Source: a virus (Duplodnaviria > Caudoviricetes). From it: DNA of 64,000 nucleotides. The DNA lies in IMG/VR virus record IMGVR_UViG_3300016476_001378; one strand, given 5' to 3'. Of the stretch, positions 1 through 62,905 are shown in pieces. A model generated the notes under the pieces. It made no database searches and had not been told where the DNA came from. It saw nothing but the letters and a program-made list of their open reading frames with translations. Position numbers and translations under genes: made by a program. Every line of letters begins with the position of its first letter. Within the stretch, counting starts at the first letter, position 1.

Positions 1-868
1 TTTTTTCTAATATTTTAGCTTCTTTGGGTTCAGCTTTAGCAATCTTTTCTTTTGTGAGATCTATGTGTAAGCTTGTTTCTGCCAATCTGTTAGTGGCCTC
101 TTCTTTTTTAGAATTAAAGGCTTTTTCAGCTATTTCAAATTCAGCTTTAAGTTGGTCTAAGGTCTTTTTAGTTCCTTCTCCAGCAAGTTCATCTATCTCT
201 ATTTTATTTTTAGATTCACTAAATTTTTCATTGAAGGCAGCCAGCGCTGTTTGATAGGTACAAACATTTATACCACTGGGCTCTATATTATAAATGCCAT
301 CACCCATCATGCCAATAGAGGCTTCTTTACCATCTATTTTAAGATACTTAGAAAACTCTTTTTGGGTCTGCTTAAGCAACGATCTGGAAGGAACTGTAAA
401 AATAACGGGGCCAACACCCATTTGCGCGATCAATTCGCATGCTGTCATAGTTTTTCCAGCACCTGTGGCCAAAGCCAAGACGCCTCTGGAAACTTTAATG
501 GCCTTGTCTACAGCCTCTATTTGATAATCATAGAGCGATCTGTTAAATTCTTCAAATCTAGTCTCAACATTTAAATTTTTAACTGGTTTGATTCTATTAT
601 CAATTAATTTAAAAGAGACCCCTTGTAATTTAAGGGCATTGAGAACAGAGCTTAAAAGCCCTGTTGGAAAAGTTTGCGTTCTCTTATCGTAAAGAGTTAT
701 AATACCATCCCACTGATGGCTTTTATAAGCAGCAGACCATTCGGCATTAGGCACCATGTAACCACACTTCTCTCGAAGCATGTTATGAAATGCATGCTGA
801 TGTTCTTTATCGGGGTGTAATTCACCGATAATTTGGCATTTGGTATTAGTAATGCTAATAGACACCAT
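1..868 (-). CDS. Superfamily 2 DNA helicase (UvsW/Rad25-like), N-terminal part; runs off the left edge
   Basis: Not in ORF track. Manual translation from ATG at 868: MVSISITNTKCQ...HQWDGIITLY...FPTGLL...LYDYQIEAV (Q motif)...GVLALATGAGKT (Walker A)...FTVPSRSLLKQT (Ia)...VCTYQT; open to position 1. Confidence 0.85.
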   Translation of the reverse strand, partial: MVSISITNTKCQIIGELHPDKEHQHAFHNMLREKCGYMVPNAEWSAAYKSHQWDGIITLYDKRTQTFPTGLLSSVLNALKLQGVSFKLIDNRIKPVKNLNVETRFEEFNRSLYDYQIEAVDKAIKVSRGVLALATGAGKTMTACELIAQMGVGPVIFTVPSRSLLKQTQKEFSKYLKIDGKEASIGMMGDGIYNIEPSGINVCTYQTALAAFNEKFSESKNKIEIDELAGEGTKKTLDQLKAEFEIAEKAFNSKKEEATNRLAETSLHIDLTKEKIAKAEPKEAKILEK

Positions 869-892
869 AATAATTAAATTATGGTGTCTATT
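857..892. promoter_or_regulatory. Perfect 15-bp inverted repeat (6-nt loop) covering the helicase start codon
   Basis: AATAGACACCATAAT (857-871) / ATTATGGTGTCTATT (878-892); the minus-strand ATG (868-866) lies in the stem. Confidence 0.7.
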
Positions 893-918
893 TTAAGATA
901 AAAATACTAAAATTTAAA

Positions 919-4429: not shown

Positions 4430-5344
4430 TTAAATATTGTTACAATCTTTTGGAATTCCGAAACCAATGTTTCCTTCTTTCCCAGTAACAACTTTACCCT
4501 TTGGGTCACACAATCTATCTAATTCTCTATACATATCTTGTAAAGTTTTTAATTCTGGAAGTGAAGAATCATTTCTATGCTTTGCCAAGATCAACGCACA
4601 TAAGCCAGCTACAAAAGGTGAAGCTTGGCTGGTGCCTCTTAAGATTGCATACTGATTGTTTAAATATGTGCTGTAAATGTTATCGCCAGGAGCAATAACA
4701 CTAATTTGGGGCCCTAAAGAAGAGAAGTTCGTAAGATTGCCATTCTGATCTATCGCACCAACTGCAATAACCTCTGGGTATCTAGCTGGCCAGTTTACAG
4801 CACCTGAATCATTACCCGCTGCGGCAACAATAAAAATGCCTTGATTTGCAGCATCAATAATTGCCTGATGGAAAGACTGGGGTGGCTCAATTGGCGAACC
4901 AAGGCTCATGTTGATAATGTCAACACCCTCTGCCATAGCGGCTCGAATGCCTTGCTCAATATTTGAGTATCCACCATGTCCGCCATTGTCAAGAACTTTA
5001 ATAGCAACAAGCTTTGACTCTGGAGCTACACCCAAGATTCCAAAATCATTATCACAAGCAGCAACAATGCCTGCTACATGAGTGCCATGTCCTTGAAGGT
5101 CATTCGCATCGCCATCGCCCGAGCAGTCGATAGCCTTGATAAGGTTAGGATTGACATCATTATGATTTGGGGCCCCAGTGTCTAAAATAGCAACTGTAAT
5201 CCCGGCACCTTTTGTTACTTTATGAGCTGCAGGGATATTTGCTTGCATCAAACCCCAGTCAGTGCTTTGTGAAAGCTGTGTAAAAGGCTTGAAGATTGGA
5301 ATCAAATCATCTTCAGGTAAAAATTTAATATTCTCTTCTGACAT
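4430..5344 (-). CDS. Subtilisin-family (S8) serine protease, intracellular type (no signal peptide)
   Basis: AILDTG (Asp), HGTHVAG (His), INMSLG, AAAGND, GTSQASP (Ser); AGGAG SD. Confidence 0.95.
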   Translation of the reverse strand: MSEENIKFLPEDDLIPIFKPFTQLSQSTDWGLMQANIPAAHKVTKGAGITVAILDTGAPNHNDVNPNLIKAIDCSGDGDANDLQGHGTHVAGIVAACDNDFGILGVAPESKLVAIKVLDNGGHGGYSNIEQGIRAAMAEGVDIINMSLGSPIEPPQSFHQAIIDAANQGIFIVAAAGNDSGAVNWPARYPEVIAVGAIDQNGNLTNFSSLGPQISVIAPGDNIYSTYLNNQYAILRGTSQASPFVAGLCALILAKHRNDSSLPELKTLQDMYRELDRLCDPKGKVVTGKEGNIGFGIPKDCNNI

Positions 5345-8800: not shown

Positions 8801-11800
8801 ATGTCATTAAGATGGTTGAACTCCAAACTGGAACCCCATAACGCACTCCATTATAAGGTGTTGCCTTAAAAATGTAAACTTCATTTTTCTTTGTTGAATT
8901 TGCAGGTACTGTTTTGCCAACAAACTTCACAACATTTGGATTGTCTTGCAAATACCATTCAATAAGAGTTTCATCTGGTGTGTTGTCAACATTGCCAGGA
9001 TTTCTATAAGTGTATCTGGCTGTCAATTCATCCTTGATAGATGCAGAAGCCAATCCAGTTATTGAGTCTACAGACAAGCTTGGAGAAGAAATAAATACAG
9101 CTTCAGACATCTCTGACAGAGTCGTATTAATCCCGCCGCTATTGCTTTGAGATAGATAAACAATACTGCTTCCAGGCACTAAAGAAACATAATAATTGAC
9201 ACCTGTCGCATTTGTTGTCAATGCTATAGGAGAAACAACAATTGACTGACCTGCAGTAATTACTATAGTTGCCAAATTACTTATTACTGTTTCGCCGCTG
9301 TTATTGGTGAAAGAATAAGCAACTTTGTATGTGCCAGCTGCAAAATTGCTCGTAGTACTGCTAGAAGCAGATACAGTTGGTGCTGTTGCAGGAGGCGCAA
9401 TAACAGGGCTTGAGGTATTGGTTGTCACCGGCTTCTTTAATGATAAAATATAAGGGGGCTCATCATTATCAAGAGTTACCACTTGCGATGCAACTTTTGA
9501 GCCTATTTTATATCCATCAGAAGGTATGACTTCTACAAAAATTTTGTCAGCATTTCCAAAAACAGAGCCTGTACCAACGTCAGACTTCTTTTCTGTGACC
9601 CTGTTGTTGTAATCAGTTAAAAGAATATAAGTTTGTCCATTGTATGTTTGTGTTGCTTGGCCAACAGTACTCTGCCCAGATCTGTATCTCCACCATTTAA
9701 TTTGGGTACCATTTTCACTGGCCCCTTCATTTGAATTAAATGTGTATCCTACAGTCAGCCTCTCATAAATTGTTGGGTTAATAACTGAACCAACAGAATC
9801 TAAATGTATTGGCAACAATTTAACATCAGTGGCGTAAGGAGCTGTTGTATTTTCATATTCTCCTATAAGCTGTGGGTTATCCAAAACACTATAGAACAAT
9901 GTAAAATTTTTAATGTCTAAAGGTATTGCATTACCAAAAGAGTCTACCGTTGGATCAAAATTTCTAATTTCAACACCAACTTTATAAACTCCAGAATGTT
10001 CTACAAATACAGATACTGTATCAGTTAATTCTCTTTCTTTGTGGAATGTTATCGTTCCGTCATCTGGACTTGACCAATAACCACCTCTAAAGATTTCCTG
10101 GTTTATCAAAACAACAATAGAAGCGTCGTGTGGCCATCTCCCGTTAGACAAATAATAAGTTTTATAATCTAACGTGGATGTTGTTTCACCCCTTGTGGCA
10201 TAAAGACCAGGTGGTGTTGTAATGGTTACTCTAATTGTTGTTCCAGATTGACTTGTTGAAAAAGTTATAAGGCCCAAATTATTATTATAAATATAGGCCG
10301 TTGGAGGTACAACCACTTCCAAGCCAGACCCTATCTGTTGGTAAACTTTTACCACATCAGTAGTAGCCCAAGTTTTTATTGTGGCATAAGTAGTGTCGGT
10401 GTAAACATAATATTGCTTACCTTCTGAATCTGTTCTTGTTGGCAATCTGTCAACAACCACTTCCTTAGTAAACAAAACGCCCTGTTGCCTATTTGGCAAT
10501 GCACTTTTACGGGTTGTGTGTACTGGTGAAAAATCAGCAAAATCTGTAGATTCTCCTCGACAAATACCCCATGTTGCCCTCGCTGTCTCTGGCAAAAATT
10601 GAGTGGCCGTAAGAAGAGTTTCAAACATCATACCATTAATTGGCTGCGAAGGAGTAAACAAATATTGAATTGATGGGCTTACGACAGTGTGGGTCAAAGA
10701 TGTAATAAATGGCTTATCTGGTGCAGAACCAGTCCATCCATCTTTTAGCGTTATCTTATATTCTAATACCAAAATTTCTTCTTTAATAATAAATGGAACT
10801 GCTGTTTCAATAGTTACCCAAGGCGTGAAATTTAATCTGTCAAAAGACCATCTGGCTTGAACAATACAAGTTTTGCCATTAATACTTGGGGTTGAAGGAG
10901 AATAAACTGCATCAATTTGACTGATCCATGTTGGGTCATCATAATCAAATGTCTTACTCCAAGTTGCAGCAAATAAAGAATTAGTACCATTGTGCAAAAG
11001 TGAAGTCTTGGCATCATCCCAGTCATTGCCAGATGCAATGTGAAAATGTCTACCAAAACTTTCAGAAGACATAGTTCTTAAATAAGTTTCTTTGTGCGAA
11101 GAGCCTATGCCAAAAGTAAATACAGGGGCCCCTGTATCATTCCAAGCGCCCTGCGCCGCCTGAACAGATTGACCCACAGAATCAGGGCTTGAATTGTCTC
11201 CATCTGCTATTATCATAGCCATTGGAGTAAATGAGTTAGCCCATCTGCTAACAACGAATTCGGAAACATCGTTATAAAAACAGATAGTGTCAGCTGTTTG
11301 ATTGCCGCCACTCACATCTCCCCATGTACTTCTGGTTACTGGGGGTAAAGATTCCCAATAAGCTATAATGTCGTTAAGTCTCAAGCATCCTATTTCTTGC
11401 AAATACAAGACCAATTCATTTACTCTTGTAGCATTATTTAAATCATCATTCGGTTTGATAAATGCATCTAAAACACTCTGGTAATTTAAGCCATTGATGA
11501 CAAGCGGGGCGGTTCCTAAAAGAGTTGATGTAAGTCCTCTTTGGAAGAGCGATGTTGAAAACGTGCTAATGTCTGTGGCAGAATTTGTGTATCCAGAAGA
11601 TCTATTGATTTCTGCAGAACTGTAAATCCAAAAATCTAAATAAGAAACAGAATATGGGGACGAGGCACCAGGCAATGTCACCGTTGCTGTTCTATCAAAA
11701 ATATCACTTATGAATGTTGGCAAAGTATCTTTTAAAGAATAGGATAAAGTCGAAGGGTCGCTCCAAGACATAGACACAGTATCATCAACTAGCATTGCAA

Positions 11801-12019: not shown

Positions 12020-15000
12020 TTATAAATTGGATTTAAACCACTTAATAATGTTAGTTGGAGATGGCCCCGTAATTGGATTTTCACTGCTATCAAGTTCTCT
12101 TGCAACTAACGCGTATGTAGTTGTGGTTGTAAGACCAGTAACATTAATTATAAATGATTTAAAGCCAGGATATTCTATTTCTGAAGCAATTAATTTTTCA
12201 GGAAGAGTGTATTGAATAGAATTATTATAAACCCTAAAATCCCCAATCCTTGCTATTCTTGTTGGAGGCGTGTCAAGATTAGTATCAACACTGTCCTTGA
12301 GAGCTATTCTCCAATATTGATGGCTTGCTAAATTTGCAGATGTGTTGATAGACGGAGGAGAAGCCGCTCCACCAGCTGGTCCTACACCCTTATCAAGATA
12401 GACGGTGGTGGCAGAATTTCCAAGATAAACTTCAGAACCACCAACTCTTCCATAGATGTTATAAGAAATAGCTCCAGCAACTGCTGACCATTGAATAATG
12501 TTATAGTTTGAAACATCCAAGGTAGAATTTAAACCTGACCTTGACACTGTTGCCGCAGTAGTTTCGCCCAAATAACTCACAGCTGTAATCTTGTAAGAAT
12601 AGGAGCCAAGTCCATCGATGGTGCCAATACCATTAAGGGTTACATTTGCTGGTAAGTCTAATGGAGCATCAAATAACTTCCAAGTGACATCTTCCCATTT
12701 TCCAGCACCACCATGGATCGGAGCAATAAATTCATGAACTAGAGTCCAATCTGTTCCATTGTCTGAGTACTCAAAAATAAATGTAGGATTCTGTGTGTAA
12801 TAAACCTGAGCAGTCATTTGGTTTACATTTTTGCTTGATGTTAAATTGTAAATGGCTGTGATGCCAGCGTATGCAAGTGGGTCACCAATTAATGTATTAG
12901 TTGACTCTTCATAAGTTTTCTTGTCATTTAAGTAATTATCAGTTAAATTTTTTGTAGCCGAGCCAGAATTATTTCTATAATCGGGGCCCCAAATCAATGT
13001 ATTAGTTGATAAATTATTAATTGTCAAAGGTGAAGATAAGTTTGGCAAATATTCTCCACCTGATAAAACAGTATTATAAATACCCACTGTCAAAACATTA
13101 TCGAGTGATGGATCTGTTGGATCAACATCGTCTCTTCCAAGGTATAAAGACACCTTATTTAAAGTACTTGATTTTGGCTTAAATGTTTGTGCCAAATAAC
13201 CATTGGTAAAATATTCACCAGAGTCTATGCTGCTTCTAAAGCTAACGCATGGGTCACCTTCATCAGGTAATTCATTTGTTTTGTACCAAGAGTCACCTTC
13301 GTCATTTGAATACCAAAGGCCTTGATCCGTAGCGACAAGCAAGCAATCACCGCCCAAAGATTTGATATCATGTATTGCTAAATCTTGACCGTTGATTCTT
13401 TCGCATCTTTCAAATGTTCTAGCATCATCGAAACTGCGATAGACACCCTTGTCCGTTCCTACAAAAATCTTGTAAATGAACTTGTCTTCTCCAATAAGCT
13501 CACTGGCAGTTGCATAACATGTACATGAAAGCCCTTCAAGGTTATGGTTTGCAACTACAAAATCTCCCGAAGAAGCATCATTTGGATCACACCAGCGCCA
13601 ATTTATAACAGTAAACACTCCATTCGAAGATAAAATTATAATTGGTACAGGCGGCTGGTTGTTCTTAGTGGGCTTGGGGCTATTAAAGACCTTATAGTAT
13701 TTAACACTTACCTGTTTTGTGCCGCCATCAGGAAGATTTACAGTTACTAAGTTTGGATTGGCCCCAAACATTTCTCTACCAGAAAGCAATGAAGAATAGT
13801 CACTGCTACGAGCACCATCACAAACTCCATAGAGTCCGTTGTTGGTGCACAGGAACAAAACATCTACTAGTGTTTGTTTTTGTCCACCTTGGCCGTCGTC
13901 GACCAAACGATAGAATTTATTTTTATAAAGACCATAAACATTCTTTTCATCAACTGCATCAAAGTGGTCTGAAATAAATGAACCATCTGACTTTTGTCGA
14001 ACAAAAGACAAACCGTCATTTTTACCATAGGCTATAAACGTATAATTTGTGCCCCAAGCACCTGTAGCATGATCAAATATTGCTTGTGGGAATGTTGCGT
14101 TTAAAGACCAAGATAAATCATCTTGCTGTTCAAATAATCCAATATCTGTCCCAGCCATGAGCGAAGAACTACCATCTTGTGGCTTGATAAAATACACCTT
14201 GCCAGCATTATTTAAAGCTGTTTCTTTTTTCCACAAGCCAGCAGATGATGAGTAAATCCAAATACCCTTGTCTGTTCCGATTCTTAAGTTATCACCAGAA
14301 TACGATGGGTTATAGATGTAATAAAAAGATCTTGGTGGAGCAGCAGAGTTTGTTTCTGAAGGAACCAAACCTACATAATATGAGGATGAAGAACCTCTTA
14401 CATCTGGCGGTGTTGTTGAAAAATCATAGAATAATGAATTAACGGGGCCCCTTTTTGCAAATTCAGCATAAACAGGAACTGGCTCAGAGAAAAAGTTCGT
14501 AAAGAGCTTAGGAAAAATCAAATTATCACTTAGGTCTTTTGCAGACATAGCGGCCAAACTCAATTGAGACAAGTTTGCTCCAGCTACAGAATTAAAATGA
14601 TAATATTGATTTGCCTGTGCAAGTGTAATTTGGTCTTCTATTCCTGGAACAGAACCAGCGGCGACAGCATAAACTTCTGTATTTGTTGCTGGTAGAGTCA
14701 AAGATGTTGAAGGTCTTGTACTTAATAAGAAGATTTCCCTAATGCCTGTTTTTGAATTTACAGAAACCTTAACAGGTGTGCGCTCATAAACCGCACCTGC
14801 TGTCCAGACCAAGTCTAATAGAGTGGTATTTAAAGGAATAGAATTTGGCTCTGACACAAAAATCTGAGTATTGCTTGGTGCTGCAGAAATTAAATCTGAT
14901 GCAAGTTTAGTGAGCAAAGCACCTCTTACAAGAGAGTTAGGCTGTTCTGCATGTGGAGTCACACCTGTATTTTTTATGTACTTATTTAATTTAATTATTG

Positions 15001-22500: not shown

Positions 22501-23379
22501 ATCTGCGAAAGAAGCAAGTGCGTCGGGGGTGGATAATTTATTATTGGTTACAAAGTTTGTTAATCCAGGAAAATAAGAAAGCTTAACAGTAACATCGTGA
22601 GAAATAGGGGCCCCTAATTGAATAATATAATTGGAGCCAACACCAGAATCTAATTTTGTATAGATTAGTCCCGTAGAACCCATTGTGATAGAGCCTGTAG
22701 TTGTCAATCCCCAGGGGCCCTGATTTACCAATGTGCCTGATGTGCAGTAGGTAAACATGGAAGCAATTTCTGCTGCGGTGTCAGCATCTGTAGCTCTTTT
22801 CAAAACCCAAGGAGTACTGCCATCACCAACAGTCATTACATAATAGATGCCGTTTTGTTGTGGATCCACATCTTGATTTTTAACAAGGACACGGTTGTTT
22901 AAGGCCAAGCTTACACCATCTATAACAATTGCACCATTAGTTGTACTTGTCAATGTAGCATTTACGCCAGATGTACCATTGCTATAAGTTGCAGACAGAG
23001 TTGCAGTTGTAACAACTCTTACATCAGCTTTGTAATTAGTGTAATCACGTTGAATTTTGATAATTGGAACAGGTATGCCGTCATACTCTACTAAAAAAGT
23101 AGAAGGATCTACGGCTGGCAAAATTGGCAATGGAGATACACTATCAAAATAAACTGTAATAGATAGTCCATCTTCTGATGCTACAGCTCTGTTAAAAACA
23201 GGAGCTGTGTCTGCTAGAGCCACAAAGTTTACATCGCCGCTGCCTTCTGAAAGAAGACTTGCAGTTGAATTCCCTTGTTCTTCGAATGAATTTTGATTAT
23301 TTTCGAGGGAGTTCTGATTTGAATTTTGTTTTTCTACGTTATTTTTGCTATTTTTATTATTGTTTTTATTCCAACTCAT
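19549..23379 (-). CDS. Large tail-associated protein (QNGIY module, beta-propeller, Ig-like domains)
   Basis: 1276 aa; N/Q-rich N-terminus; RVLVKNQ...QNGIY...WVLKRATDAD; repeated LYVA/LWIG/LFMG/VWAG blades. Confidence 0.72.
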   Translation of the reverse strand: MSWNKNNNKNSKNNVEKQNSNQNSLENNQNSFEEQGNSTASLLSEGSGDVNFVALADTAPVFNRAVASEDGLSITVYFDSVSPLPILPAVDPSTFLVEYDGIPVPIIKIQRDYTNYKADVRVVTTATLSATYSNGTSGVNATLTSTTNGAIVIDGVSLALNNRVLVKNQDVDPQQNGIYYVMTVGDGSTPWVLKRATDADTAAEIASMFTYCTSGTLVNQGPWGLTTTGSITMGSTGLIYTKLDSGVGSNYIIQLGAPISHDVTVKLSYFPGLTNFVTNNKLSTPDALASFADEIVDVSGVKYPLGFFDPIDWAVNGYSGTIPNGQILERRVGFMSPPVIYDIVPPVGDVVLHQGETQTFDGMQVHYFGCYSTNGNTETSANIIAGKYFVLDIQENTVRAARSLGGSVYPEQTETIGDGYNYYLVNYLTPNSSGVYPTVKSIEFGITASNPKNYVIEVKETPTSSWTQLVYMYASNVTLEYYRYAFLAALSLYAVRIRYRGDYYYQNNSGLTTIAARDTVSNVDAVRVSHFSDFRDAKEFAEANFPVENLLDPSDEGWIAFNDGVSSFDWDIVNQSKIWSEFVDLNTLEAGTKLFYFADSLMAVSDNKIYSVSSAGLATLVHDASSTIINDFAIYDNKLYVALESGNVIQSTTGISFTTPSVLSNLPPVKTLGVFSGRLWIGTGLDADNLGHVYSYNGVSLRLKRTFADSQVLSMGSSSNYLFMGLGSDVVSSQKGLIYLTDGNTFTQAYNTGQDRVEIIQFNTIFGEVWAGASDGTIYSFKFNTDGTVRSTSRVKQLSTGGSGFKFLDFVDSSDGTFFWIITNKNVEGVLVYARDLGSYYEVYQPSPNTINGLAYLNNNVYGIATDGKIYLLDLTLFQTAERNVYVQLRDLAGNKSTTSLIDNIIFGLPAPKDTTNTSGTQPAAGQIFQIKVPTTYYYLPTTTSDNYTYTSVQKWSSSDAIEVYRSTSGGAKILVNSSEYTNNNNGTVTFATIQGVNITIFITLMTPASQGLTQVSVYQTPSATSALYAPSRTTRQTGFYESEPFYAPSLNRWNELSIQSQFVSTPSAPAGLESGLKIDVYVRTASNRDDCLTADWGNPFTYSTINTTSALGIITTQYNIHSYTGKWLQFKVVMTTATSSVSPKVNYVALSYFSARDTYFFTRQFDTSTEDPALPYPTIKRGLVTFNGTANGGNIQFKYLADADPANAFEVAKYTDITPNTVFTLPTPSRYIRFAIQLVSAGDSLDPNSAAIVDEFAVQLETGDKDLYWMNPDVP

Positions 23380-36839: not shown

Positions 36840-39800
36840 TTAAGTTATTTGCGGGAAATAACTTCCTTCTACTCTGGCTGTTATTAAATTTTTCTCTACA
36901 TCTATAGCGTAACTGACAGAACTATAGATATATTCTTCAGTTGTGTCTAATTCTACTCCACCTGCAAATGATTTTATTTTAAATTTACCATAAGACTTCA
37001 ATGGCTTTGTGACATAAACATTTACAGATAAAGATTGAAAAGTTTTTCGTGCAACGTTTTCTCTTGCATCAAAAATTTGTTTTCCAAGTATTTTAGACTG
37101 TATCAAACCTGGGTTTGGTGACAAGTCATTATAATAATCATCTTTATTGAAGCCAACGTAACCCAAAACTTCTTGATATTGAACATTGGGGCCGACCAGT
37201 GCATTTAATCTGGCAAATGCAGAATCACCTACAGCTTGAGTTATAAATTCATTATTAGAATCAAAAATAGATGGATAACCATCAAAGTTTTGATGAATCA
37301 AAACAACTTGAGAGTGAAGATTGTTGACAGCGGTTTCTTCTATCCAACCGTCAGATGTTGCCAAGCCATGCAACCCTTCAGGGTTTGAATTTACAAGATA
37401 AGTTATACCCTGACCATCTATTGCTGCATCTCCTGCAAAAAATAATTCTTCTGCATTGTCAACACCTCTAGTCGTGAGCTCAAATAATTCTTTTTCAGGA
37501 TTCCAATAAATCACAGGAAGATTACTTGCCAAATTTGACCCAGAGGGGCTTGAAACGTGAATCATCATTGAAAGTAAGGGCTGGACGATGTCTTTGATCT
37601 TCTTATCTCTAGATGCAGAAATCACACGGCTAGATAACGCATTTTGATATTGAGGCAAGCCTGTGTATTGATTAAAATAAATGTCATAAAGCACATCAAA
37701 GTCAGATACTCGACTTCTTGGCACGTAATATTTTGCAAGACCAGCAAATTCAAAACAATCCTCTAAAATATATTGATAAGTTCTAAAATGTAATGAGACT
37801 GGGTTGGATACATTAAAGTGTATTCCAGAAAGCAACGTGTCTCCAATGTCATCACACTTGACTTCTACTTCATAAGAATCAGGCTTTCTTACAACTTTGA
37901 CACCCTTTGTCATGCCCTGGAAGAAAGTATGTTTATCATTGCCATAGCCAGCTTTTAGAGTAAATGTGAGAATGTTTTCTTGTAAGGCATTTAGAATCTG
38001 TCTGCCTATCAGATCATTTGTCATATTTTTAAAAGTCAAAGTTGCACTTGCTTTTCTGTACGACAAGTTCTTGCCCTCAAAATCTTCATCTATTCTTGCG
38101 CTTACCAAATAACCTGTAACATCAGAATATTCGCCCCATAATGGCTTGTTAATACCTGAAACTTTTTTATCAGTAACAGTTGTGTAGTTCCTTAGGTAGA
38201 AGAATACAGGCCCCTCTATTGTTGTATTGTATGTAACAACACCATCGATAGAATATCTTGGATTTTGTGGGCGTGAATTATCTTGAGCCCTATTTAATTC
38301 ACGATAATAAAACTCAGGATTTTTAACATAATCAGCGTCTTTAATTACTCCGCCCTCGCCATCATTTATTCTTCTCCAGTCAGAATAATATGTAGGGGCC
38401 TCTTTTGTATTTTGTCTCAAGTCAGAAGCTGGATCATTATAAACATTAGTTGGATTTTTGCGTGTAAGAAGATCTGTATTTAAGGCAGTTTCTGTAAATG
38501 TATCAACACCAACAGCAACATCGCCATGGATTTTAATTTTGCCATAGCCCTGTGTGCCAGTAATAGAAATTCCAGAAAATGATTCTGTATTTGTGGCATT
38601 CACTTCTTCGTAATTTAAATTATCAAAACAGATTGGAGAATAAGTGTAAGAGCATTGCAAATTTGTAAATAAAATCTGAATCATAGAGTCTTGTGGAATT
38701 CTACATTCGAAATATTCACTATAGTTTGTTTGATTGGCTTCAGATTTTAATTTAAAAGGCTCAATAGAATTCCAAGTAGACACATCTGGATCAAAACCAA
38801 TGTACATATTGGGGCCAGCGAAATGAACAAATACATCAAATTCAGTAGAATTGTTTAAGCCTAAAGTATTGCCTTGTAATTCTATTTCATCGAAAGATCC
38901 ACTAAGTGGATTCTCATATCTTAAAAATGTTCTATTGGTTTGCAAGAAAATACTAAAATGTGAAACATATTTAGACTTGCCAGGCTTGCCAAAGTTAATT
39001 ACAATTGAGCTATTTTCTGGTGTTGAATCAGAGCCATCAATAAAAGCTGAAGGCTTTGTGTGATTAAATCTTAACCAAAAACCGCAATTGACTCCGCCTC
39101 TGGCTTGAACAACCTTCGGAGCTACCGCAACATTGCCAACTTTAGAGAAATAAATATTAGGTGATTCATACAGAAGGTCATCAGCAATGGGAAAAATTCT
39201 TTTGACTAAACACTTTGTATTTTGTGCGTGTACTGTAACTTGGCTGCCAGTTCCATTGTATTGGGTGCTTATGTGAGCATACCCATTTGGCTCATAGTTT
39301 GTTACGCCTAAATTGACAAAAAATGTTTTGATAAAATCTGTGCTTGTGACTTGTTGCCAAATGTTATAAGTCTTTCTGGCAGTAAGCCCAGTATAAGGAG
39401 CTCTTTTATAAAATGGGATAAAACCACTGCCGCCTGTTCTTAAGATTTGGTCATCTAAAACATTATTTGGCGTATTTGTAATAGATTCTGTCAGACGTTG
39501 TTCAATTATCGGGGAGCCTGCGGGAACCACGTATGCAGCTGTGCTAAATTTTGACTTTGAAGCACCAGATAATAAATTAAGTACAGGATGCTCCATCCCT
39601 GGGCCTATAGCACCTTCGCCAAAGGTACAGGCAGGAGCCCCAATATTAAGATTGAGCTTTGGAATAATACCGCCAGATCCAGATGCTAAAGTTGCTAATT
39701 TTTTAGAAAATGTAGATCTTTCTATCTGGTGTGTGTAAGTGGCGGTGATTGTGTTGGTTTTATCTTTTTGCTGTCTAAATCTTGATTGAACAGACTGAAT

Positions 39801-39884
39801 AGAACCAATTTCTGGCAAATTGACTGCACCTATAACGCAACTAATATTTAACGGTTTTGGCGCAGTTGGATCTGTACTTGCCAT
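36840..39884 (-). CDS. Probable baseplate hub/tail-tip protein
   Basis: C-terminal half SATLTFKN...TLKAGYG...FFQG...VKCDD...ILEDCFEFAGL resembles hub-type proteins; GAGAGG SD; function inferred. Confidence 0.55.
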   Translation of the reverse strand: MASTDPTAPKPLNISCVIGAVNLPEIGSIQSVQSRFRQQKDKTNTITATYTHQIERSTFSKKLATLASGSGGIIPKLNLNIGAPACTFGEGAIGPGMEHPVLNLLSGASKSKFSTAAYVVPAGSPIIEQRLTESITNTPNNVLDDQILRTGGSGFIPFYKRAPYTGLTARKTYNIWQQVTSTDFIKTFFVNLGVTNYEPNGYAHISTQYNGTGSQVTVHAQNTKCLVKRIFPIADDLLYESPNIYFSKVGNVAVAPKVVQARGGVNCGFWLRFNHTKPSAFIDGSDSTPENSSIVINFGKPGKSKYVSHFSIFLQTNRTFLRYENPLSGSFDEIELQGNTLGLNNSTEFDVFVHFAGPNMYIGFDPDVSTWNSIEPFKLKSEANQTNYSEYFECRIPQDSMIQILFTNLQCSYTYSPICFDNLNYEEVNATNTESFSGISITGTQGYGKIKIHGDVAVGVDTFTETALNTDLLTRKNPTNVYNDPASDLRQNTKEAPTYYSDWRRINDGEGGVIKDADYVKNPEFYYRELNRAQDNSRPQNPRYSIDGVVTYNTTIEGPVFFYLRNYTTVTDKKVSGINKPLWGEYSDVTGYLVSARIDEDFEGKNLSYRKASATLTFKNMTNDLIGRQILNALQENILTFTLKAGYGNDKHTFFQGMTKGVKVVRKPDSYEVEVKCDDIGDTLLSGIHFNVSNPVSLHFRTYQYILEDCFEFAGLAKYYVPRSRVSDFDVLYDIYFNQYTGLPQYQNALSSRVISASRDKKIKDIVQPLLSMMIHVSSPSGSNLASNLPVIYWNPEKELFELTTRGVDNAEELFFAGDAAIDGQGITYLVNSNPEGLHGLATSDGWIEETAVNNLHSQVVLIHQNFDGYPSIFDSNNEFITQAVGDSAFARLNALVGPNVQYQEVLGYVGFNKDDYYNDLSPNPGLIQSKILGKQIFDARENVARKTFQSLSVNVYVTKPLKSYGKFKIKSFAGGVELDTTEEYIYSSVSYAIDVEKNLITARVEGSYFPQIT

Positions 39885-39927: not shown

Positions 39928-40473
39928 TTAATTTTTAGGTGCAATAACCATAGACATGGCCTTGCCATCCAAAACTGCTGGCTTTTCTATAATAGATATT
40001 TCTGATGTAGCTTCCACAATCCTGTTAATTAATTTTTCTGCGAATTCTGGATAAGCTATTTCGCGGCCTTTGAACTTAATTAAAATCTTAACTTTGTCTC
40101 CATGTTTGAGAAATTTAATAGCATTATTGACTTTCACTTTAAAGTCATGCTCTTCAATGCTCATGCCAAAGTTTAAAATTTTTAAATCAGATTGCTTGGA
40201 AGAATTATGTAAATCTCTTTGCTTTTTCGATTGTTGATATTTATATTTGCCATAATCAACAATTTTACAAACTGGCGGTGTGGCGGTCGGAGCAATTTCA
40301 ACCAGATCTAAACTAAGCTCCCTTGCCATGTCAAGTGCCTTATTTGCACTTACCACACCCTTTTGCTCACCATTCTCATCAATTAAACGAACTTCTCGCA
40401 GCTTTGGGAGGTTATTGAAAAATCTCAAAATTTGTTCGTTAATTCGTGGTTCTTGCAAATCTCTATCTGTCAT
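39928..40473 (-). CDS. infC: Translation initiation factor IF-3
   Basis: RINEQI...EVRLIDENGEQKGVV...LDLVEIAP...PPVCKIVDYGKYKY...KFLKHGDKVK...FKGRE; ATG start with AAGGA SD. Confidence 0.97.
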   Translation of the reverse strand: MTDRDLQEPRINEQILRFFNNLPKLREVRLIDENGEQKGVVSANKALDMARELSLDLVEIAPTATPPVCKIVDYGKYKYQQSKKQRDLHNSSKQSDLKILNFGMSIEEHDFKVKVNNAIKFLKHGDKVKILIKFKGREIAYPEFAEKLINRIVEATSEISIIEKPAVLDGKAMSMVIAPKN

Positions 40474-44889: not shown

Positions 44890-47800
44890 TCAACTATTTA
44901 ACATGTCTAAATACATTTGTTCAATCATTTTTCTGTAGACTATTCTTAGTTTTTTCTCATGGTCTATTTGCATTTGATTGAATTCGTATTTAAGTTCTCT
45001 TTCTATTCTTTGTCTTAATAAGAACTCATCTATTTCTTTCGCGCTTTCGTTTTCTTTTTGCTTTTCTTGAATCATTTGAATGATCTTTGTAGCATCTATG
45101 AAAACTTTTTCGGGGCCCTTTTCTTGTGATGTTTTAATGGCCTCCAATGTTTCTTTTTGAGCAACCTTGTTTGCTTCTTGCTGTCTTTCTTGAACATTCT
45201 GAATAGTATTTTGTATACTTTCAGTTTCGCGTTCAAGGGCGAATTCTCTATCTTCTTTGATTATAGACTGGATAATCTGATTAATAGGGCTTGAATTTTC
45301 ACTTTCGGCCTCCAAAGGCTGCTCAGTTATAACCTTAACAAGTTCCTGCTGAATCTGCTGCTCTGCTCGTCTAAGATTAGCCCTGTTGTTACCTCTCTCA
45401 TTCTCCAGATTTGCTCTAAATCTTTCTCTTTCTTTTAATAACTCTTGATAAATTATACTTTCAGAACTCAAAGCTTCTTTTATCTGCTGAGTGGTAGCTG
45501 AATCTGTTGGCTGGTCTTTTGGAACTTCAGTTTTCATTAGTGTATCACCACCAACTGTGATGTATTTTACACTTTTGAGCTTTACATTGTTTTCGTCTTC
45601 TTCTTCAGCTTCTGAAGAGCCGCTTGCGCTAACCCCAGTAATAACAGGATTTAAAGGTCTAGGCTGTTGCTGCTCTATTCCCTGATAGTCAAATTGTGTC
45701 AACCCTGAAGCCTCTTGGGTCTGCGGTATAAGTCCTTCGTTTATAATTTGCTCTGAGATTTTTTCTATGTCTCTCGGCTGCAAAGCATTATTTAAATTAA
45801 TTCTACCAGGCTGTTGCACATTGTCTTCAGCGGCATCGTCCGGTCTTGAGGTGCGTCTATTGACTGCAAACAATCTAGGTATGGAAGTTTCGGGACTATC
45901 TGTCCCTGACTCACCAACCTGAGGAGCCTGTGGCAATGACACCTGTTGCAAACTGGTTAAATCTTGCCCTCTGGTATTTCCTTGCCCTTGTTGAATAGTA
46001 GCATCAAAAATACCACCAGTTTGTGCAGATTGCCCAGGAATACTTCCAAAATCATTTTGTTCTGCTTGGCCAGATTGTGTCTGAATAGAAACTTCTTGAA
46101 CTCCAGCAGGTGATAAAATTGTATTTCCAGCTGTACCAGAGCTTAAATTAATTCTATCTCTTCGTCTCTCTTGTGCTTCCTCCTGTGTTGCAAAGCCTGG
46201 CGCTTGACTTTCTGGCAAGGCTTCATAAGTTGTTTGATTTAAATTATCGTTTGCAGAAGATGGCAAAACTTTGCCATTTGAATCAATCTGAGGAGAAACA
46301 TTTATTTGATCTGTAACAGAATAAACTTTAGACTGCTGAGATACTAACTCGGGACTAGATACTGCATCAGTTGTTATTGTACCCTGGACATTCCCATCAG
46401 CATCAAGAGTTTGTCTAGTGTCTGCCTGGGTACCTTGAGCCGTTTGGGCTTCAGGCAAAGATACCATTTCTGGAGAATTAATTCTAGTCGCGAACTGACC
46501 AGATGCTTGTATGGCTTCTGAAATCGCCTGGGAGGCTTCAGCTTGGACAGCTTGAGTTGCCGCTTGAACGGCTTGAGCTGTCACCTGAGATGCTGCTGTT
46601 TCTATTACTTGAGAAGATTCGCTCTGAGCAACCTGAGGTGCGGATAGGTCAGTTCCAGATGTAGCTGATGCTTCTGTACCAGATGCAGCTGATGCTTCTG
46701 CGCCAGGGCGATTTCCCATGTTATTTACGGGCTGGCCAGTTATAGGGGAAACAGAAGCCTCTAAATAGTTTCTTTGTGCATCTGGAGTGGAGCCTTCAAA
46801 ACCTGGAAGTTGCACTTGCTCAACGCCATCAGGCCCCTGTTGATTTACAAATTGTGGGTTAGGCTGCTCTACAAAAACACCATCTTCATTATAATACCCA
46901 GGTGTAGGCTGTGTGTTAGAGCCTAAATTATCGCCAGGAATCTGCCCGGCTCTTTGGATGGAAATTCTTCCACTCTGATTCTGCTCTATTGCATTAAGTG
47001 TTGCTTCTGTTTGCTCTAATGTTTCATCTAATGCCTGAATAGCATCAGATGCCTGTCCTAATCCAGAAGCCTGTGCAAGTTCTTGGTAAGTTAATTGCTT
47101 TAAATCATCAGCTTCTGCTGGGCTTTCAGAGTTAACAATTGATGATTCTAAATTTTGAGCATCTTGAATAGTGTCTCTAATAACAACTCTTGCCGCATCC
47201 TGGACAGTATCAACTAGTCCTTGTGTGGTTTCTTGAATGGACTCACTTGCAACTTGGGCTGCAGTTGTAACAGACTCTTTAATGACACCTTGTATGGTTT
47301 CTCCTGTTACCATTTGAGAAACTTGCTGCATCGAGCCTTCAGCAATTTGCTCAGCTGTTTGTAAAGCACTCTGTGTTACGGCGCGAGAGACATCTTGTGA
47401 AACTTGCTGTATTACATTCTGCCCTACAATCTGTTCTGTTATTTTATCTGCTATGTCTGCGGCGTTTTGAATAACTTCTTGTGCTGCATTAGCCACTGCA
47501 TTCTGTGCTGTTGACTCCAAGACATTTTGGACTACATCCTGAACGGAGTCTACATTGGAATTTTGCAACGCACCCTGAACAGCTCTCTGAGCTGCATCTT
47601 GGGCCGCACTTTCTGCAACACCCTGAGCTGTAGCCTGAGTGGTATTTTGAAGTGTGTTAATAGCCGCATTTTGCGATGCAACTTGATCTGCTATTTGAGC
47701 TGAGCCTTGGTAAAGAACTCTGTTTGCAATTTCTGCTATTTTATTTACTGCTACAGTTGCCCCAATAACATTACCATTGTCATCATAAATAGGCCCATCA

Positions 47801-55354: not shown

Positions 55355-55364
55355 GAGGTAATAG

Positions 55365-55967: not shown

Positions 55968-55993
55968 GTTTATCTCCTTTTAATATAGAAAAT
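55966..55993 (+). promoter_or_regulatory. Putative phage promoter AGG-N17-TAGAAAAT
   Basis: AGG 55966-55968, TAGAAAAT 55986-55993, then AAGGAG SD. Confidence 0.55.
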
Positions 55994-56012
55994 TTAATGA
56001 AGGAGTTAAAAG

Positions 56013-56738
56013 ATGAGCTGGTACAGATACGCTAGAACTACAACTGCTTTAAGAAAACACATGATGAGAGTTGATCTTCATGTGCATGCTGGTGACGAAG
56101 CCGATTACACAGACGAACAAATTAAAGAAGATGCTATTAGATCTATTCTTTCAGCTGCTGTTATCAAGGGTCTAGATGTAATTGGAATTGTAGCCCACGA
56201 TGGACTTACAATGGGCCAAAGAGCCATTAACATTTCGGCAAATGAACAATTAGATCTCTGGGTTGTAGCTGGCCATGAATATCTCTGTACTGATAAATTT
56301 AGAATCATAGCTTACAATATTAAACAACCAGTTCCACCAAATTTAACTTATCAACAAGCAGCAGAATGGGTTCATAAAAATAAAGGCCTTGTAATGATTA
56401 TTGACCTTACAAAAAGACAGGCTCAGATCATCAATAAGCTTAAAGGCACGAGTGCACAGCCAGATGCAGTAGAACTCTATAATGCAGAGGTTGGCTGGTT
56501 TATGGACATTGATGTGCATGATTATTATGAGTTTATGAACTCAGCAGCAAAAAGTGCAAAAATGCTAGAAGATACCAACGTTTACACTCTAATCAACAGA
56601 AAAGATTTTGAGCAATTAGGTTTTATGCCTGAGGGTGAAGGAACAGACTATGTTCCTAAATATTTAAAGAGATCTGATGAATTAGAAGCGCAAAAAGAGC
56701 AGCAGCAAGCTAACCAGCCAGCACAAGGAGGCGTTTAA
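56013..56738 (+). CDS. PHP-domain protein with degenerate metal site
   Basis: RVDLHVH, GLDVIGIVAHDG, VVAGHEY, PDAVELYNA; NSAAKS where SDAH is expected. Confidence 0.8.
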   Translation: MSWYRYARTTTALRKHMMRVDLHVHAGDEADYTDEQIKEDAIRSILSAAVIKGLDVIGIVAHDGLTMGQRAINISANEQLDLWVVAGHEYLCTDKFRIIAYNIKQPVPPNLTYQQAAEWVHKNKGLVMIIDLTKRQAQIINKLKGTSAQPDAVELYNAEVGWFMDIDVHDYYEFMNSAAKSAKMLEDTNVYTLINRKDFEQLGFMPEGEGTDYVPKYLKRSDELEAQKEQQQANQPAQGGV

Positions 56739-57232
56739 TGTCTAGAAAATATTGCACAGTGGACAATGTAAAGCAGTATCTGCCACAAAACATTATTGTC
56801 GAGGGACAAAATCCAGATCCAAATCCTTTCAACCCTTCACCAGAAACATTACCTGCTATAAACATAGAATTTTTTATTGAGCAAGCCTGCATTGAGATCG
56901 ATTCTGCGCTTGCCACAATTTACGACGTACCGCTTAAAAAAATTAACTTTGGGGGAGATGTTCAATATCCACCTCCAATCCCTTCCATTGCGGCTCTCCT
57001 GGCCTCACAGATGATCTGGGAACAGAGACTGCAGGGTACAGATAGCCAAAGAAGCGAATCTCAAAAAGAAAGAGAAAAATGGGCCCATGATGAATTAACA
57101 ATGATTCAAAATGGCGAAAGAAGACTTATGGCCCAAAGAGCGACAAGGGGCAATCGTTATGTTAGAAATACAGCCCTTGACATTCCTAAGAACCCTGTTA
57201 AAGATGGTAAATCAACAGGCGCACCAAGATAA
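56738..57232 (+). CDS. Head-tail adaptor-like protein (Mu gp36/DUF1320-like)
   Basis: YCTVDNVKQYL...IEQACIEIDSAL...YDVPL...ELTMIQNG pattern. Confidence 0.7.
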   Translation: MSRKYCTVDNVKQYLPQNIIVEGQNPDPNPFNPSPETLPAINIEFFIEQACIEIDSALATIYDVPLKKINFGGDVQYPPPIPSIAALLASQMIWEQRLQGTDSQRSESQKEREKWAHDELTMIQNGERRLMAQRATRGNRYVRNTALDIPKNPVKDGKSTGAPR

Positions 57233-61000: not shown

Positions 61001-62024
61001 ATGGAAGGTTAGTGCTCAGCTTTTAGCGGGTGAAGATTATTGGGCTGTTTTAGAATTAAACTCTGTTCCTCAAGGTGGAGATATTCTTATAGCAACATCA
61101 AACCCTTATGATGAAACTGTCAGAGAAATAGATTTCCAAGCTTTTTCTTTTATTAGTCTTGCAGATACAAATACATTTACGTGTTCAATACCAATCAAAT
61201 TTATTCAATCTAGTGCTAACACTGGCGAAAATTTGACAAATTCTTCTGGCAGACTTGATTTTGTTGTTTATTCATCGACAGATGCTGGAACCATTGGAGC
61301 ACCAATTTCTATCACTGCGATGCCTGGTTTTAATACTTATGTTAATTTCTCTGACATTTTAACATACAATAAGAATTTCCAATTCTCTGTATCCTTCTCA
61401 GCGGCAAAAGATACAAAATATTGGGTTGGTTTAGTGCCTAACGTAAGGCCAAGGGGCGGCACAATTGTTGCCGACATGGCAAATACATTCTTAGATCAAA
61501 TACAATTTACTTTGCAAACCAATGATGTGGGGCAATACACAGCATGGGATAACTGGGATGGCAGCAATTACAAAGCATGGATGGAAGTTTATTATGAAGT
61601 GTCTGAGATCTATGGATATTTCAATAGAGATGAAGACTACTCCATTCAGAAATGGCTACCATCTTCAAACAAAAGTAGAATAACTACAGCCCTATTACAA
61701 AAGGAAGGCTCGTGGGCATTCACAGCTAAAAAATTCCCACAGCCTTCAGCTGTTTATATTTATCCAAGATACGCTCCAGGCTATTATGTCCCAAGTTATA
61801 ATAATATCTATGTGTCTATTAGATTGGTAGTTGGCGGAAAATTAACAGATTACATTGTTCAAATAGACCCAACCGCATCACCAGTAGAGCCAATTAGAGT
61901 CAACCCTGTTGGGGAAGAAGCTGAAAGCATCGCTTACCTCTATGTTGCAAAGACCCTAGAAGAATTACAGAATGGAACACATGGGGCCCCTCCAGGTGAT
62001 AGAATAATTATAAGGAGTTCATAA
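58032..62024 (+). CDS. Large structural protein with two jelly-roll-like C-terminal domains
   Basis: 1330 aa; repeated unit (SEVSLKLK)...IY/VYSS...YW[AV][VG]L..N..P.GG. Confidence 0.7.
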   Translation: MTDISRLGLEKIASNLGAAQASIANQLGDTNKNPGALLDLEAVLCKLRGSTLFYNDDYSRFYYPAPSNPSVIEPFDFVKFNSSDLVGLGIQGASISKDNEASNLGFPALGMASWHPGYLGPPCPEGFGTWYYNAWAGYHKDPPSSGFENGNYQDRYGYENPVRYNSSNQSYNRVPFFEHARWISILNSSGSSRTTGTYSFAINKDKIYGIKIKDHITGFPQDIRFMYYTKLVQGRSSTTWESINVTTNANYELSYLAYSVEEVDDTYVFKINIPNDLTYNPTVGSSGSGHVANKWWHFVMFWGSIDEKAFQDVIEFDGGLTEIDIFSNELIVWNVKHFFRDGLDSKLKWLQQSINDSAENNLKGTDYRYLVAQNRTHFLLEDGGTLVASNPDKYSLATTILGDNLSSINSVSNDVIELDADQFQSAILTVKTSGDNQGIGETAYKLTLGPKFYSDFATTNWEDFEYYPEPEADYITIAKIILKRASAENYEAIESNIINGTKVDVINPLYGINQTTIVQNAVIHWMQQVVPSHAVAPHGDPLLSSRLLTGMYKSVRNFRFHRTEDPIVVAATRLLTYGSRTPEALFSTRTSVYNVNSQGSIIFRRLLKNPTDDLLQPSPDEPLAIQFDSNTRKTIESIASAAPSTEMLRLNADHLFLTNNKLNIANTFEVYLESSDNCTAADTSATGNRVGLDYTLRMYLEDSNENLLKKDWYIMASKYLLTNQEMADRITKEQSTVGYFTFDTLSNIQEWRLQGYAGIVPDLVMNESRVLTTRFASPPDSTQVTEAQYRANLEAQGYSQSEIDELVLRYLEDGNEFYSENLFQYDNNFVALREAALNITTFTEGTPYWQSNIAGLYDVTQPDPESGTVFYSDSFTIALEGASPSDLESVGKLAQTIYSYTPSSSITDLILENNRTAFKFNSGSGGSISEVSLKLKSSIFDAADTAITNNGRIYLKIYSSTGTQPDSLLASSIDYVDYTTILESDYNAYRWKVSAQLLAGEDYWAVLELNSVPQGGDILIATSNPYDETVREIDFQAFSFISLADTNTFTCSIPIKFIQSSANTGENLTNSSGRLDFVVYSSTDAGTIGAPISITAMPGFNTYVNFSDILTYNKNFQFSVSFSAAKDTKYWVGLVPNVRPRGGTIVADMANTFLDQIQFTLQTNDVGQYTAWDNWDGSNYKAWMEVYYEVSEIYGYFNRDEDYSIQKWLPSSNKSRITTALLQKEGSWAFTAKKFPQPSAVYIYPRYAPGYYVPSYNNIYVSIRLVVGGKLTDYIVQIDPTASPVEPIRVNPVGEEAESIAYLYVAKTLEELQNGTHGAPPGDRIIIRSS

Positions 62025-62905
62025 TGAGTGAAACACCAGAAGTTACAGCAGAACTATTAAACTCATTGCTGCTCCAATATGATAAATTAGTTGAAGGCGA
62101 TGATCTTTATTTGAGTTTGGAAGAATTTGCCATCGGCCAACCAGTAACTAATAGGCCCCTAGATTTATGTTGGGGCTATGCTTCTGTAGAGGCAAGTACG
62201 CAATCTTTAGCAGAGTATGAAGTTGTCATTGGCAGGGGTATAACTAGATCAACCACATCCAATGTTACCAAACAAATTAATAGAGTTAATTATGATTTCA
62301 CAGGCTTGAATTTAACAGATTTATTACCAAATAACCAATATCAAAACATTTATGCTTTTGGTAGTATTTTTATAAGCCCTGGCGATGACTCAGGACTGAT
62401 TAAAAATCCCACATCTATAATCGAAGCTGTGTTGCTAAAGGGTGAATTAGGTGGTTATCCTCTTTTGATGACGCATGATTTAGAAATAAATAATGTTCTC
62501 AGAATGATAAGAGATGAAGAGATCCCAGCTGCTATTAAGCCAAATGATAATTCAATAGAAATTTTTAGATTTGTATTAGAAATTAATTATTATAGCACAG
62601 ATGATTACACCACCAAAGATGTTAAAATACATTTTTTGGACAAAAGAAAACCCAGAGGTTGGGGTGGCTTTGCAGAAGAGGCACTGGCTGCAACCATAAC
62701 TCCTTTTTTGATTTACAAAAAAGAAGATTATGCCACATTTTTAAATGCATTTGATAATAATATTTATAATTTAATAAAAAGCTGGATAAATCTAAGGTAT
62801 TGGTCGCCAAACTTTCTTGACTATTGGCAAAATCCAAGCAATTCAGTGCTGATGCCAGATAGATTAAAAGACTATTTAAAAATAAAATTCAGTATCACGA
62901 TTTGA
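62024..62905 (+). CDS. Hypothetical protein, likely structural
   Basis: 293 aa, AAGGAG SD, TAATG coupling. Confidence 0.72.
   Translation: MSETPEVTAELLNSLLLQYDKLVEGDDLYLSLEEFAIGQPVTNRPLDLCWGYASVEASTQSLAEYEVVIGRGITRSTTSNVTKQINRVNYDFTGLNLTDLLPNNQYQNIYAFGSIFISPGDDSGLIKNPTSIIEAVLLKGELGGYPLLMTHDLEINNVLRMIRDEEIPAAIKPNDNSIEIFRFVLEINYYSTDDYTTKDVKIHFLDKRKPRGWGGFAEEALAATITPFLIYKKEDYATFLNAFDNNIYNLIKSWINLRYWSPNFLDYWQNPSNSVLMPDRLKDYLKIKFSITI

Follow-up and report, generated by a model that had tools for sequence, protein, structure and literature searches.

The sequence studied here is a stretch of 64 kb, referred to below as the window, from the virus record IMGVR_UViG_3300016476_001378 (Duplodnaviria; Caudoviricetes), throughout which the hexamer GGGGCC, or its complement GGCCCC, recurs within and between the genes. 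The window has a guanine plus cytosine (GC) content of 37.6% (G 18.3%, C 19.4%), is 95% coding and carries a series of very large virion-type genes with next to no family matches. Almost no matches for its proteins were found in PHROGs, and a blastn search of the INPHARED phage collection with positions 49000-56900 returned no match. Two lake metagenomes of the Joint Genome Institute (JGI; L001 and L002) carry window DNA at 99.7% identity. The open reading frames (ORFs) used throughout are mechanical calls. The data cover the 64 kb of a genome larger than 200 kb and, for each related locus (L numbers), 13-23 kb.

Abundance and placement of GGGGCC

An earlier note on this sequence had given hand counts of 31 GGGGCC, 26 GGCCCC and six copies of the octamer GGGGCCCC on the plus strand. 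These counts were reproduced exactly, as were the positions of the octamers, and the 18-bp perfect palindrome that had been reported around one of them is present; the first site begins at 407 and the last occupies 62154-62159. From base composition alone, simple arithmetic gives about 2.7-3.0 copies for each hexamer and about 0.1 for the octamer. Three null models were applied, namely Markov models of orders 0-2, a synonymous-codon shuffle within each gene that keeps proteins, dipeptides and codon usage (1000 shuffles), and a second shuffle in which all dinucleotide counts, including those at codon junctions, are additionally held fixed and which changed 38% of the codons (300 shuffles). GGGGCC/GGCCCC was the top over-represented hexamer in this AT-rich DNA under the Markov models and the synonymous shuffle. 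The Markov models predict 5.7-11.7 copies for the 57 observed. For the 54 copies in coding sequences, the synonymous shuffle predicts 6.5 (standard deviation 2.6, maximum 16, z 18) and the dinucleotide-preserving shuffle 17.3 (standard deviation 3.2, maximum 28, z 11.6). The earlier note had named the loss of the excess under a codon- and dipeptide-preserving shuffle as the outcome that would speak against it; as a large excess is left by shuffles that preserve protein, codons and dinucleotides, a refutation on the grounds of dipeptide or codon usage fails.

The 54 copies within ORFs occur in all three frames and in both senses, with the codon phasing GGC CCC in 18 cases, GGG GCC in 12, xxG GCC CCx in 11, xxG GGG CCx in seven and others in six. 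The remaining three copies (5574, 54424 and 55179) are intergenic, a class that makes up 5% of the window, so that their density equals that of the coding copies. Among 262 positions at which the word could be placed silently, 54 (21%) are occupied, compared with 5.7 expected from codon usage. The earlier note had claimed that the sites force GC-rich codon pairs against the third-position bias, and rare codon pairs are indeed forced; 18 of 39 Gly-Pro pairs are written GGC-CCC (1.3 expected) although CCC accounts for 9% of proline codons. An origin of the excess as a by-product of composition, of codon-pair or dipeptide usage, or of assembly could draw on the facts that GGC is the commonest glycine codon (36%) and that the odds ratios of GpC and CpG are 1.32 and 0.46, respectively. 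We nevertheless regard its probability as negligible, since the excess outlasts shuffles in which proteins, codon usage and all dinucleotides are preserved, the motif is found in all frames and both senses, 18 of 21 GGC-Pro pairs use the rare CCC, independent JGI, NCBI and ENA assemblies contain these sites as well, and the excess is missing from two relatives, L007 and L032, whose composition and proteins are the same. A codon, dipeptide or dinucleotide artefact is thus ruled out by the three nulls and by the spread over frames, and an artefact of composition or assembly is excluded; the DNA-level nature of the signal, which had been proposed earlier, holds.

The orientation of the copies is random (25:20 with the octamers set aside; runs test p 0.65). 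Likewise no polarity was found, either with transcription (31:23 relative to the sense strand) or along the window by the same runs test. Copies in the window are spaced more regularly than by chance (Greenwood p 0.008), with a largest gap of 3859 bp, and a more regular spacing is also seen in the related locus L003 (p 0.027).

A non-palindromic unit

The earlier note had regarded the motif as an iterated palindrome similar to the highly iterated palindromes (HIPs) and as a signal centred on GGCC, a description that had to be given up once maximal blocks of a G run followed by a C run were counted and compared with the synonymous shuffle. Enrichment is limited to blocks containing G4C2, that is G4C2 itself (28 observed, 4.4 expected), G4C3 (10 and 0.9), G5C2 (4 and 0.5) and G4C4 (6 and 0.2). 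Close to or below expectation are G2C2 (80 and 73), G3C2 (27 and 25), G4C1 (30 and 25) and G5C1 (1 and 3.7), as well as G3C3, the palindromic unit that a HIP would call for (2 and 2.9). GGCC occurs at 157 sites in coding DNA, 51 of them within motif loci, and the remainder matches the 108 expected; in addition, 16 of 19 GGGCCC sites overlap a GGGGCC. Counts of 7-mers and 8-mers are accounted for by the hexamer, and the six octamers by the hexamer and heptamer counts. Because only G4C2-containing blocks are enriched, the iterated word is the non-palindromic hexamer GGGGCC, which brings about GGCC, GGGCCC and the octamer as by-products; the palindrome and GGCC are ruled out as the unit by the block counts. 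Apart from being rich in A/T, with G avoided and C preferred two-fold right after the motif, the flanks are uninformative, which rules out a longer hidden repeat or a mobile element, and the 18-bp palindrome is the sole site with extended symmetry.

Among the 18 one-base neighbours of the word only changes at position 4 deviate, with GGGACC absent (6.8 expected) and GGGTCC found once (7.4 expected). The remaining transition neighbours show observed/expected ratios of 1.6 (AGGGCC), 1.9 (GAGGCC), 1.1 (GGAGCC), 0.9 (GGGGTC) and 1.4 (GGGGCT), so that five of the six are not depleted. This argues against a conversion of neighbours into the motif, and a repair-driven origin of the very-short-patch (VSP) type, acting on T:G mismatches, for which depleted transition neighbours are the hallmark, does not find confirmation here. 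GGWCC is avoided three-fold overall (12 against 36 expected) and GGGWCC even more strongly (1 against 14), and the scarcity of GGGACC and GGGTCC fits a separate, general avoidance of GGWCC. The neighbour pattern as a whole fits decay products of selected sites together with this separate avoidance of the restriction type. VSP repair by Vsr and Dcm in E. coli is accompanied by a surplus of CCWGG and a deficit of CTWGG and CTAG. The window resembles this situation in combining a motif excess with one missing transition neighbour (GGGACC, 0 against 6.8), but it differs in that the other transition neighbours are present, that GGWCC avoidance accounts better for the missing words and that the excess is much larger.

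Inheritance and turnover of the sites

Homologues of the 1014-aa virion protein of the window were found at about 90%, about 40% and about 27% identity, and the regions fetched around many of them were subjected to the same synonymous shuffle. GGGGCC is again the top hexamer of L003 (14 against 1.6 expected), and the nearest relative of the window, L054 (89% nucleotide identity), has many sites in common with it. In L005, L029, L041, L044 and L050 the top hexamer is GGGGGC/GCCCCC, with 9-13 copies against about 1 expected (z 9-13), and a weaker GGGGGC excess is seen in L036 and L049. The other relatives examined, including L007 and L032, showed no comparable iterated hexamer, and a search of the 13-23 kb of each motif-free locus for iterated words of 7-8 bases yielded no convincing candidate. 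In a tree of the 1014-aa protein, obtained by a quick IQ-TREE search, the seven GGGGGC loci are monophyletic with a Shimodaira-Hasegawa-like approximate likelihood ratio (SH-aLRT) support of 100, and the window and L003 form a second clade, whose sister group, L007 plus L032, is motif-free. Tree and motif distribution together show that the trait is heritable and clade-specific and exists in two variants that differ by one base.

The window, L003 and L054 have a mutual identity of 85-89% (86% between L003 and the window) and were compared site by site, a comparison of three genomes in which not every change can be polarised. Of 19 site clusters in 16 kb, six are common to all three genomes, eight to two of them and five are private. 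In each of the six directional comparisons, G or C at wobble positions is kept at a rate of 0.70-0.90 within the motif and of 0.44-0.57 elsewhere (Fisher p 1e-4 to 5e-3), so that sites are conserved above background between related genomes, as has been described for HIPs. Changes within the motif are G-C transversions in 4 of 10 cases, compared with 36 of 994 elsewhere (binomial estimate, p about 3e-4). Such swaps shift the junction between G and C or flip the word to the opposite strand, and the motif is not destroyed by them (Table 1). The flip at 48455 involved two G-C changes and one amino-acid change, and an exchange between Ala and Gly accompanies a shift or flip of the site twice, here and at 45112. 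Private gains through double substitutions were found in L054, where GGT CCT or GGA CCA was replaced by GGC CCC and GGAGTC by GGGGCC.

Within the GGGGGC clade the sites are conserved among the closer members, and the almost entirely different set of sites in the distant L036 indicates complete turnover over longer times. In the alignment of L005, L029, L044 and L050 the sites are concentrated downstream of a 1009-aa gene. Pairwise identities are mosaic (for instance 0.84 for L005-L050 and for L029-L044, 0.74 for the cross pairs), which points to recent recombination between these lineages.

Table 1. Positions of the GGGGCC/GGCCCC copies, of sites that changed between genomes and of two genes mentioned in the text
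Feature	Position	Strand	Remark
Dispersed set, 51 loci with 57 oriented copies of GGGGCC/GGCCCC	407..62159	both	about one per 1.25 kb
GGGGCC, start positions	407, 2286, 2466, 4708, 5169, 11125, 12983, 14444, 16194, 17747, 22607, 22714, 26829, 28202, 30912, 32272	+	
GGGGCC, start positions (rest)	33767, 35625, 37188, 38395, 38811, 42566, 43786, 45112, 47935, 48455, 53931, 58134, 58305, 60672, 61983	+	
GGCCCC, start positions	5171, 5574, 6652, 9720, 11127, 12063, 12985, 13760, 14446, 18748, 22609, 24671, 30984	+	
GGCCCC, start positions (rest)	33372, 38209, 40991, 41439, 46832, 52192, 52850, 54424, 55179, 57994, 59376, 61985, 62154	+	
Octamer GGGGCCCC	5169..5176		one motif copy per strand
18-bp perfect palindrome ATACAGGGGCCCCTGTAT	11120..11137		around an octamer starting at 11125; in the 1068-aa gene, codes for TGAPV
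Octamer GGGGCCCC	12983..12990		
Octamer GGGGCCCC	14444..14451		
Octamer GGGGCCCC	22607..22614		
Octamer GGGGCCCC	61983..61990		
Junction moved by one base relative to L003	43786..43792		coding strand GGGCCCC in the window, GGGGCCC in L003; copy retained on the other strand
Amino-acid change with site retained	45112..45118		K-G-P-E (AAG GGC CCC GAA) in the window, K-A-P-E (AAG GCC CCT GAA) in L003
Strand flip relative to L003	48455..48460		coding strand GAG GCC CCT (E-A-P) in the window, GAG GGG CCT (E-G-P) in L003
1014-aa virion protein gene	36840..39884	-	
IF3 gene	39928..40473	-	IF3_N and IF3_C domains

Possible readers of the word

The excess, the asymmetry of the word, its independence of frame and strand, the conservation of sites, the motif-preserving substitutions and the lineage-specific variants are direct observations, and the force behind them is one that acts at the DNA level, favours one asymmetric word on either strand, keeps as well as creates copies and differs between clades. 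From a comparison with known systems we tentatively propose that GGGGCC is a selected recognition signal, most likely a Chi-like one as in phage P1; this is the interpretation we rank first, while considering it possible rather than probable. The ranking is based on the asymmetry, on an anatomy that matches P1 and on the clade-specific variants. An asymmetric unit suits a single-strand reader such as RecC or AddB better than a dimeric reader of the duplex, and an asymmetric, strongly over-represented word that is the top k-mer of the sequence is one mark of the Chi-type hotspots that phages accumulate. Phage P1 carries 50 E. coli Chi sites, which have been understood as a means by which RecBCD, from whichever end it enters the injected, terminally redundant DNA, is bound to encounter a site that is active. 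In Chi-rich phages, such as P1 and its relatives with the E. coli Chi GCTGGTGG or the phage LLS, an asymmetric G-rich word is likewise the top k-mer of the phage and occurs about once per 1.9 kb; P1 has Chi on both strands and at equal density in ORFs and outside of them, and the orientation is near-random in its relatives. The lambdoid phage LLS has one Chi per 1.86 kb and the Pseudomonas phage MD8 has 32 copies of the Pseudomonas Chi GCTGGCGC, and both have close relatives without Chi (PMC12315714; PMC3784561), which shows that closely related phages can be Chi-rich or Chi-free.

If this proposal holds, GGGGCC would be a positively selected word that is active in either orientation and read on one strand, and the phage lineage would write it at a spacing of about one kb, mainly through synonymous codons and sometimes at the cost of an amino acid. 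A helicase-nuclease of the AddAB/RecBCD type, supplied by the host or possibly encoded by the phage, would enter the linear DNA upon injection or during replication and, whichever end it started from, come upon a copy in the right orientation within a few kb, whereupon degradation would give way to the loading of recombinase. As a result the genome would be protected, and recombination could circularise or concatemerise a terminally redundant jumbo genome that is packaged by the headful; both the helicase-nuclease as the reader and this mode of packaging are what we infer from the anatomy. In the GGGGGC clade the specificity of the nuclease would differ by one base, and the motif-free relatives would follow another strategy.

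Several points set the word apart from Chi or weigh against a Chi-like function. Unlike Chi, the word is a hexamer without a known cognate nuclease, candidate host genomes are not enriched for it and one clade carries a one-base variant. Chi sites of cos phages have a strong polarity and gather towards the ends of the genome, neither of which applies to GGGGCC within the 64-kb window, and the view is limited to these 64 kb out of more than 200 kb. In the GGGGGC clade, sites are clustered rather than evenly spaced. Chi in phages that lack recombinases shows a median observed/expected ratio of 2-5 (PMC3784561), values that are exceeded by the eight-fold excess and the 21% occupancy in the window. 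Furthermore, a scan of the presumed host phylum (401 genomes, with CCGGGG as control) detected no GGGGCC excess, the true host being possibly absent from this sample, and the sampled genomes of the phylum have a GC content of 53-59%, compared with 37.6% in the phage.

This difference in GC content renders the assignment of the host phylum itself shaky. The 1.36-Mb contig of an Armatimonadetes metagenome-assembled genome contains a syntenic block with a homologue of the 1014-aa protein (28% identity), and neither this block nor its genome shows a GGGGCC excess. This block (L004; JAFDWS010000002.1, 68164-91238), which is syntenic with the giant virion genes of the window and encodes products of 1024, 84, 1202, 326 and 2469 aa at a host-like GC content of 53%, could be a prophage or a domesticated module of a jumbo phage. 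As motif-sharing hosts, G214 and G108 were discarded because they are outliers through CCGGGG depletion and not through GGGGCC enrichment, and G047, G117, G162 and G253 because the excess is absent from them. A seemingly complete (100%) strand bias of the motif on contig 4 of G001, whose phylum was scanned, proved to be an artefact of the order in which the sites had been listed. The DnaK of the phage was uninformative as a clue to the host, its nearest cellular homologues (Bacillota) being about 50% identical. Of 41 genomes sampled from this phylum about 11 encode AddB-like proteins of about 1050-1185 aa, which speaks for the Chi-like reading, and RecC was found in one of 61.

The genomes of this phylum have DNA-level peculiarities of their own. 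Hyper-iterated palindromes occur in G162, with about 29 copies of TCGAGTACTCGA in 23 kb (about 1.25 per kb), and similarly in G253; G117 has a word of the CAAGTACTTG type (AGTACT 96 against 10) and G047 has CGAGTACT. These words look like HIP-type motifs outside the cyanobacteria. In many genomes of the phylum GGGGCC is 10-20 times rarer than CCGGGG. G214 and G108 lack CCGGGG altogether, have no GTAC where 47-610 copies are expected and almost no GGWCC (1 against 84 and 6 against 258), which is extreme restriction-site avoidance.

An alternative that we consider unlikely, though it deserves attention, is a word similar to HIP1 (GCGATCGC), in which a cytosine methyltransferase of the phage or the host marks GGGGCC and the mark is either needed about every kb by methyl-directed repair, according to Elhai's model, or biased repair regenerates the motif. 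The window shares with HIP1 a GC-rich word that is found about once per kb or gene in coding DNA, against the codon bias. Its density of about one per 1.2 kb agrees with the repair model, which predicts a site 'about once every 1000 nucleotides' (PMC4390886). HIP1 sites are also conserved between genomes and non-randomly spaced (PMC5861425), and in some lineages alternate HIPs replace HIP1 together with a matching methyltransferase (PMC4390886), a situation that resembles the distribution of GGGGCC, GGGGGC or neither among the phages. The occurrence of hyper-iterated palindromes in the presumed host phylum (TCGAGTACTCGA in G162, and G253) and the near-absence of GGGACC and GGGTCC (0 and 1, against about 7 each) point in the same direction. 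HIPs, however, are palindromes of cellular genomes with cognate methyltransferases and a 15-300-fold enrichment, whereas the unit in the window is non-palindromic, about eight-fold enriched and located in a phage, and neither G3C3 nor GGCC alone is enriched. An asymmetric site would require that each strand is handled separately, and methylation could affect cytosine only, as neither strand of the motif contains an adenine. Of the six transition neighbours one is depleted, and several of the others are enriched; a conversion of GGWCC into GGSCC would also raise G3C2 blocks, which stand at 27 against 25 expected. A Pfam search of 33 window ORFs of at least 100 aa revealed no methyltransferase or Vsr domain. 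The earlier note had left the choice between a methylation- or repair-driven and a protein-binding signal; the evidence favours the protein-binding part, with a unit that is neither an iterated palindrome nor centred on GGCC. Neisseria and Haemophilus, which are naturally competent, have DNA uptake sequences and uptake signal sequences of 9-12 bases that spread by transformation. These words are similarly dispersed on both strands and often lie within genes, and their density is upheld by molecular drive, but a lytic jumbo phage has no such route of transformation.

The word might also be a primase site, a long G/C-rich template word spread over both strands for Okazaki fragments of 1-3 kb, with a primase in the other clade that reads GGGGGC; of the readings discussed here that assume a function, this appears the least probable to us. 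The asymmetry suits single-strand recognition, both strands are populated with even spacing, the specificity varies between clades and the spacing per strand is about 2.1-2.5 kb, a range that is included among the lengths of phage Okazaki fragments. The T7 primase moreover favours templates with G runs, e.g. 5'-GGGTC-3'. Known primases, on the other hand, require only a trinucleotide core, and we know of no report of a genome-wide enrichment of primase sites. The motif-free relatives replicate well, and in the GGGGGC clade there are stretches of 9-10 kb that have no site, which sits uneasily with a word at which priming must begin. The recognition sequences of the T7 primase are the subject of PMC2910064. 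Somewhat less improbable, yet still doubtful, is another type of genome-wide binding site, for instance for a protein that assists condensation or packaging, as a self-mark against a phage nuclease that degrades host DNA, or as an anti-defence decoy. A motif that is dispersed, orientation-independent, conserved and lineage-specific would agree with this, but the clustered sites of the GGGGGC clade speak against a need for uniform coverage; we know of no phage precedent with such an anatomy and of no candidate protein.

The apparent absence of the motif from sampled bacterial genomes favours a reader that is encoded by the phage itself. Such a reader might use the word as a genome-wide self-mark, for instance to spare the phage's DNA from a nuclease of its own or to load its own recombination and replication machinery, which we regard as an outside chance of about the same weight as the HIP1-like alternative. 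Between sister clades its specificity would have shifted by a single base, from GGGGCC to GGGGGC, and in other clades it would have been lost. In this case the word would represent a new kind of phage genome signature, in which reader and sites co-evolve, and the changing specificity of this new self-recognition system could be followed on the phylogeny. If, in turn, the word is Chi-like, k-mer statistics of phages could reveal recombination hotspots of uncultured hosts and help to match phages with hosts. Under either reading the motif offers a simple experimental handle and a binning marker for genomes of this phage group, and it shows clearly how selection acts on a short DNA word in a giant phage that has not been cultured.

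Further biases at the DNA level were noted in the window and its relatives. CCGG occurs 14 times in the window where 58 copies are expected, an avoidance of the restriction type. CpG depletion (0.32-0.75) is family-wide among the phage relatives, some of which avoid CCGG totally (L020, 0 against 25; L021, 0 against 64) or GGCC totally (L027, 0 against 19). According to the synonymous shuffle, words containing ATAT are very strongly depleted in the window, including CATATG (0 against 22.6), ATATG/CATAT (41 against 183), ATATA/TATAT (53 against 239) and GCATAT (3 against 41). This depletion constitutes a second strong constraint at the DNA level and might reflect the avoidance of promoter-like or restriction sites. 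Weaker enriched words in the window are TGGCAA/TTGCCA (112 against 63, z 7.3) and TGCCAA/TTGGCA (99 against 55), and L003 has 11 copies of CATTGCCA where 1.5 are expected. Finally, a gene for translation initiation factor IF3 is located within the block of virion genes of the window and is conserved at the same position in L003, L005, L007, L029, L030 and L054.

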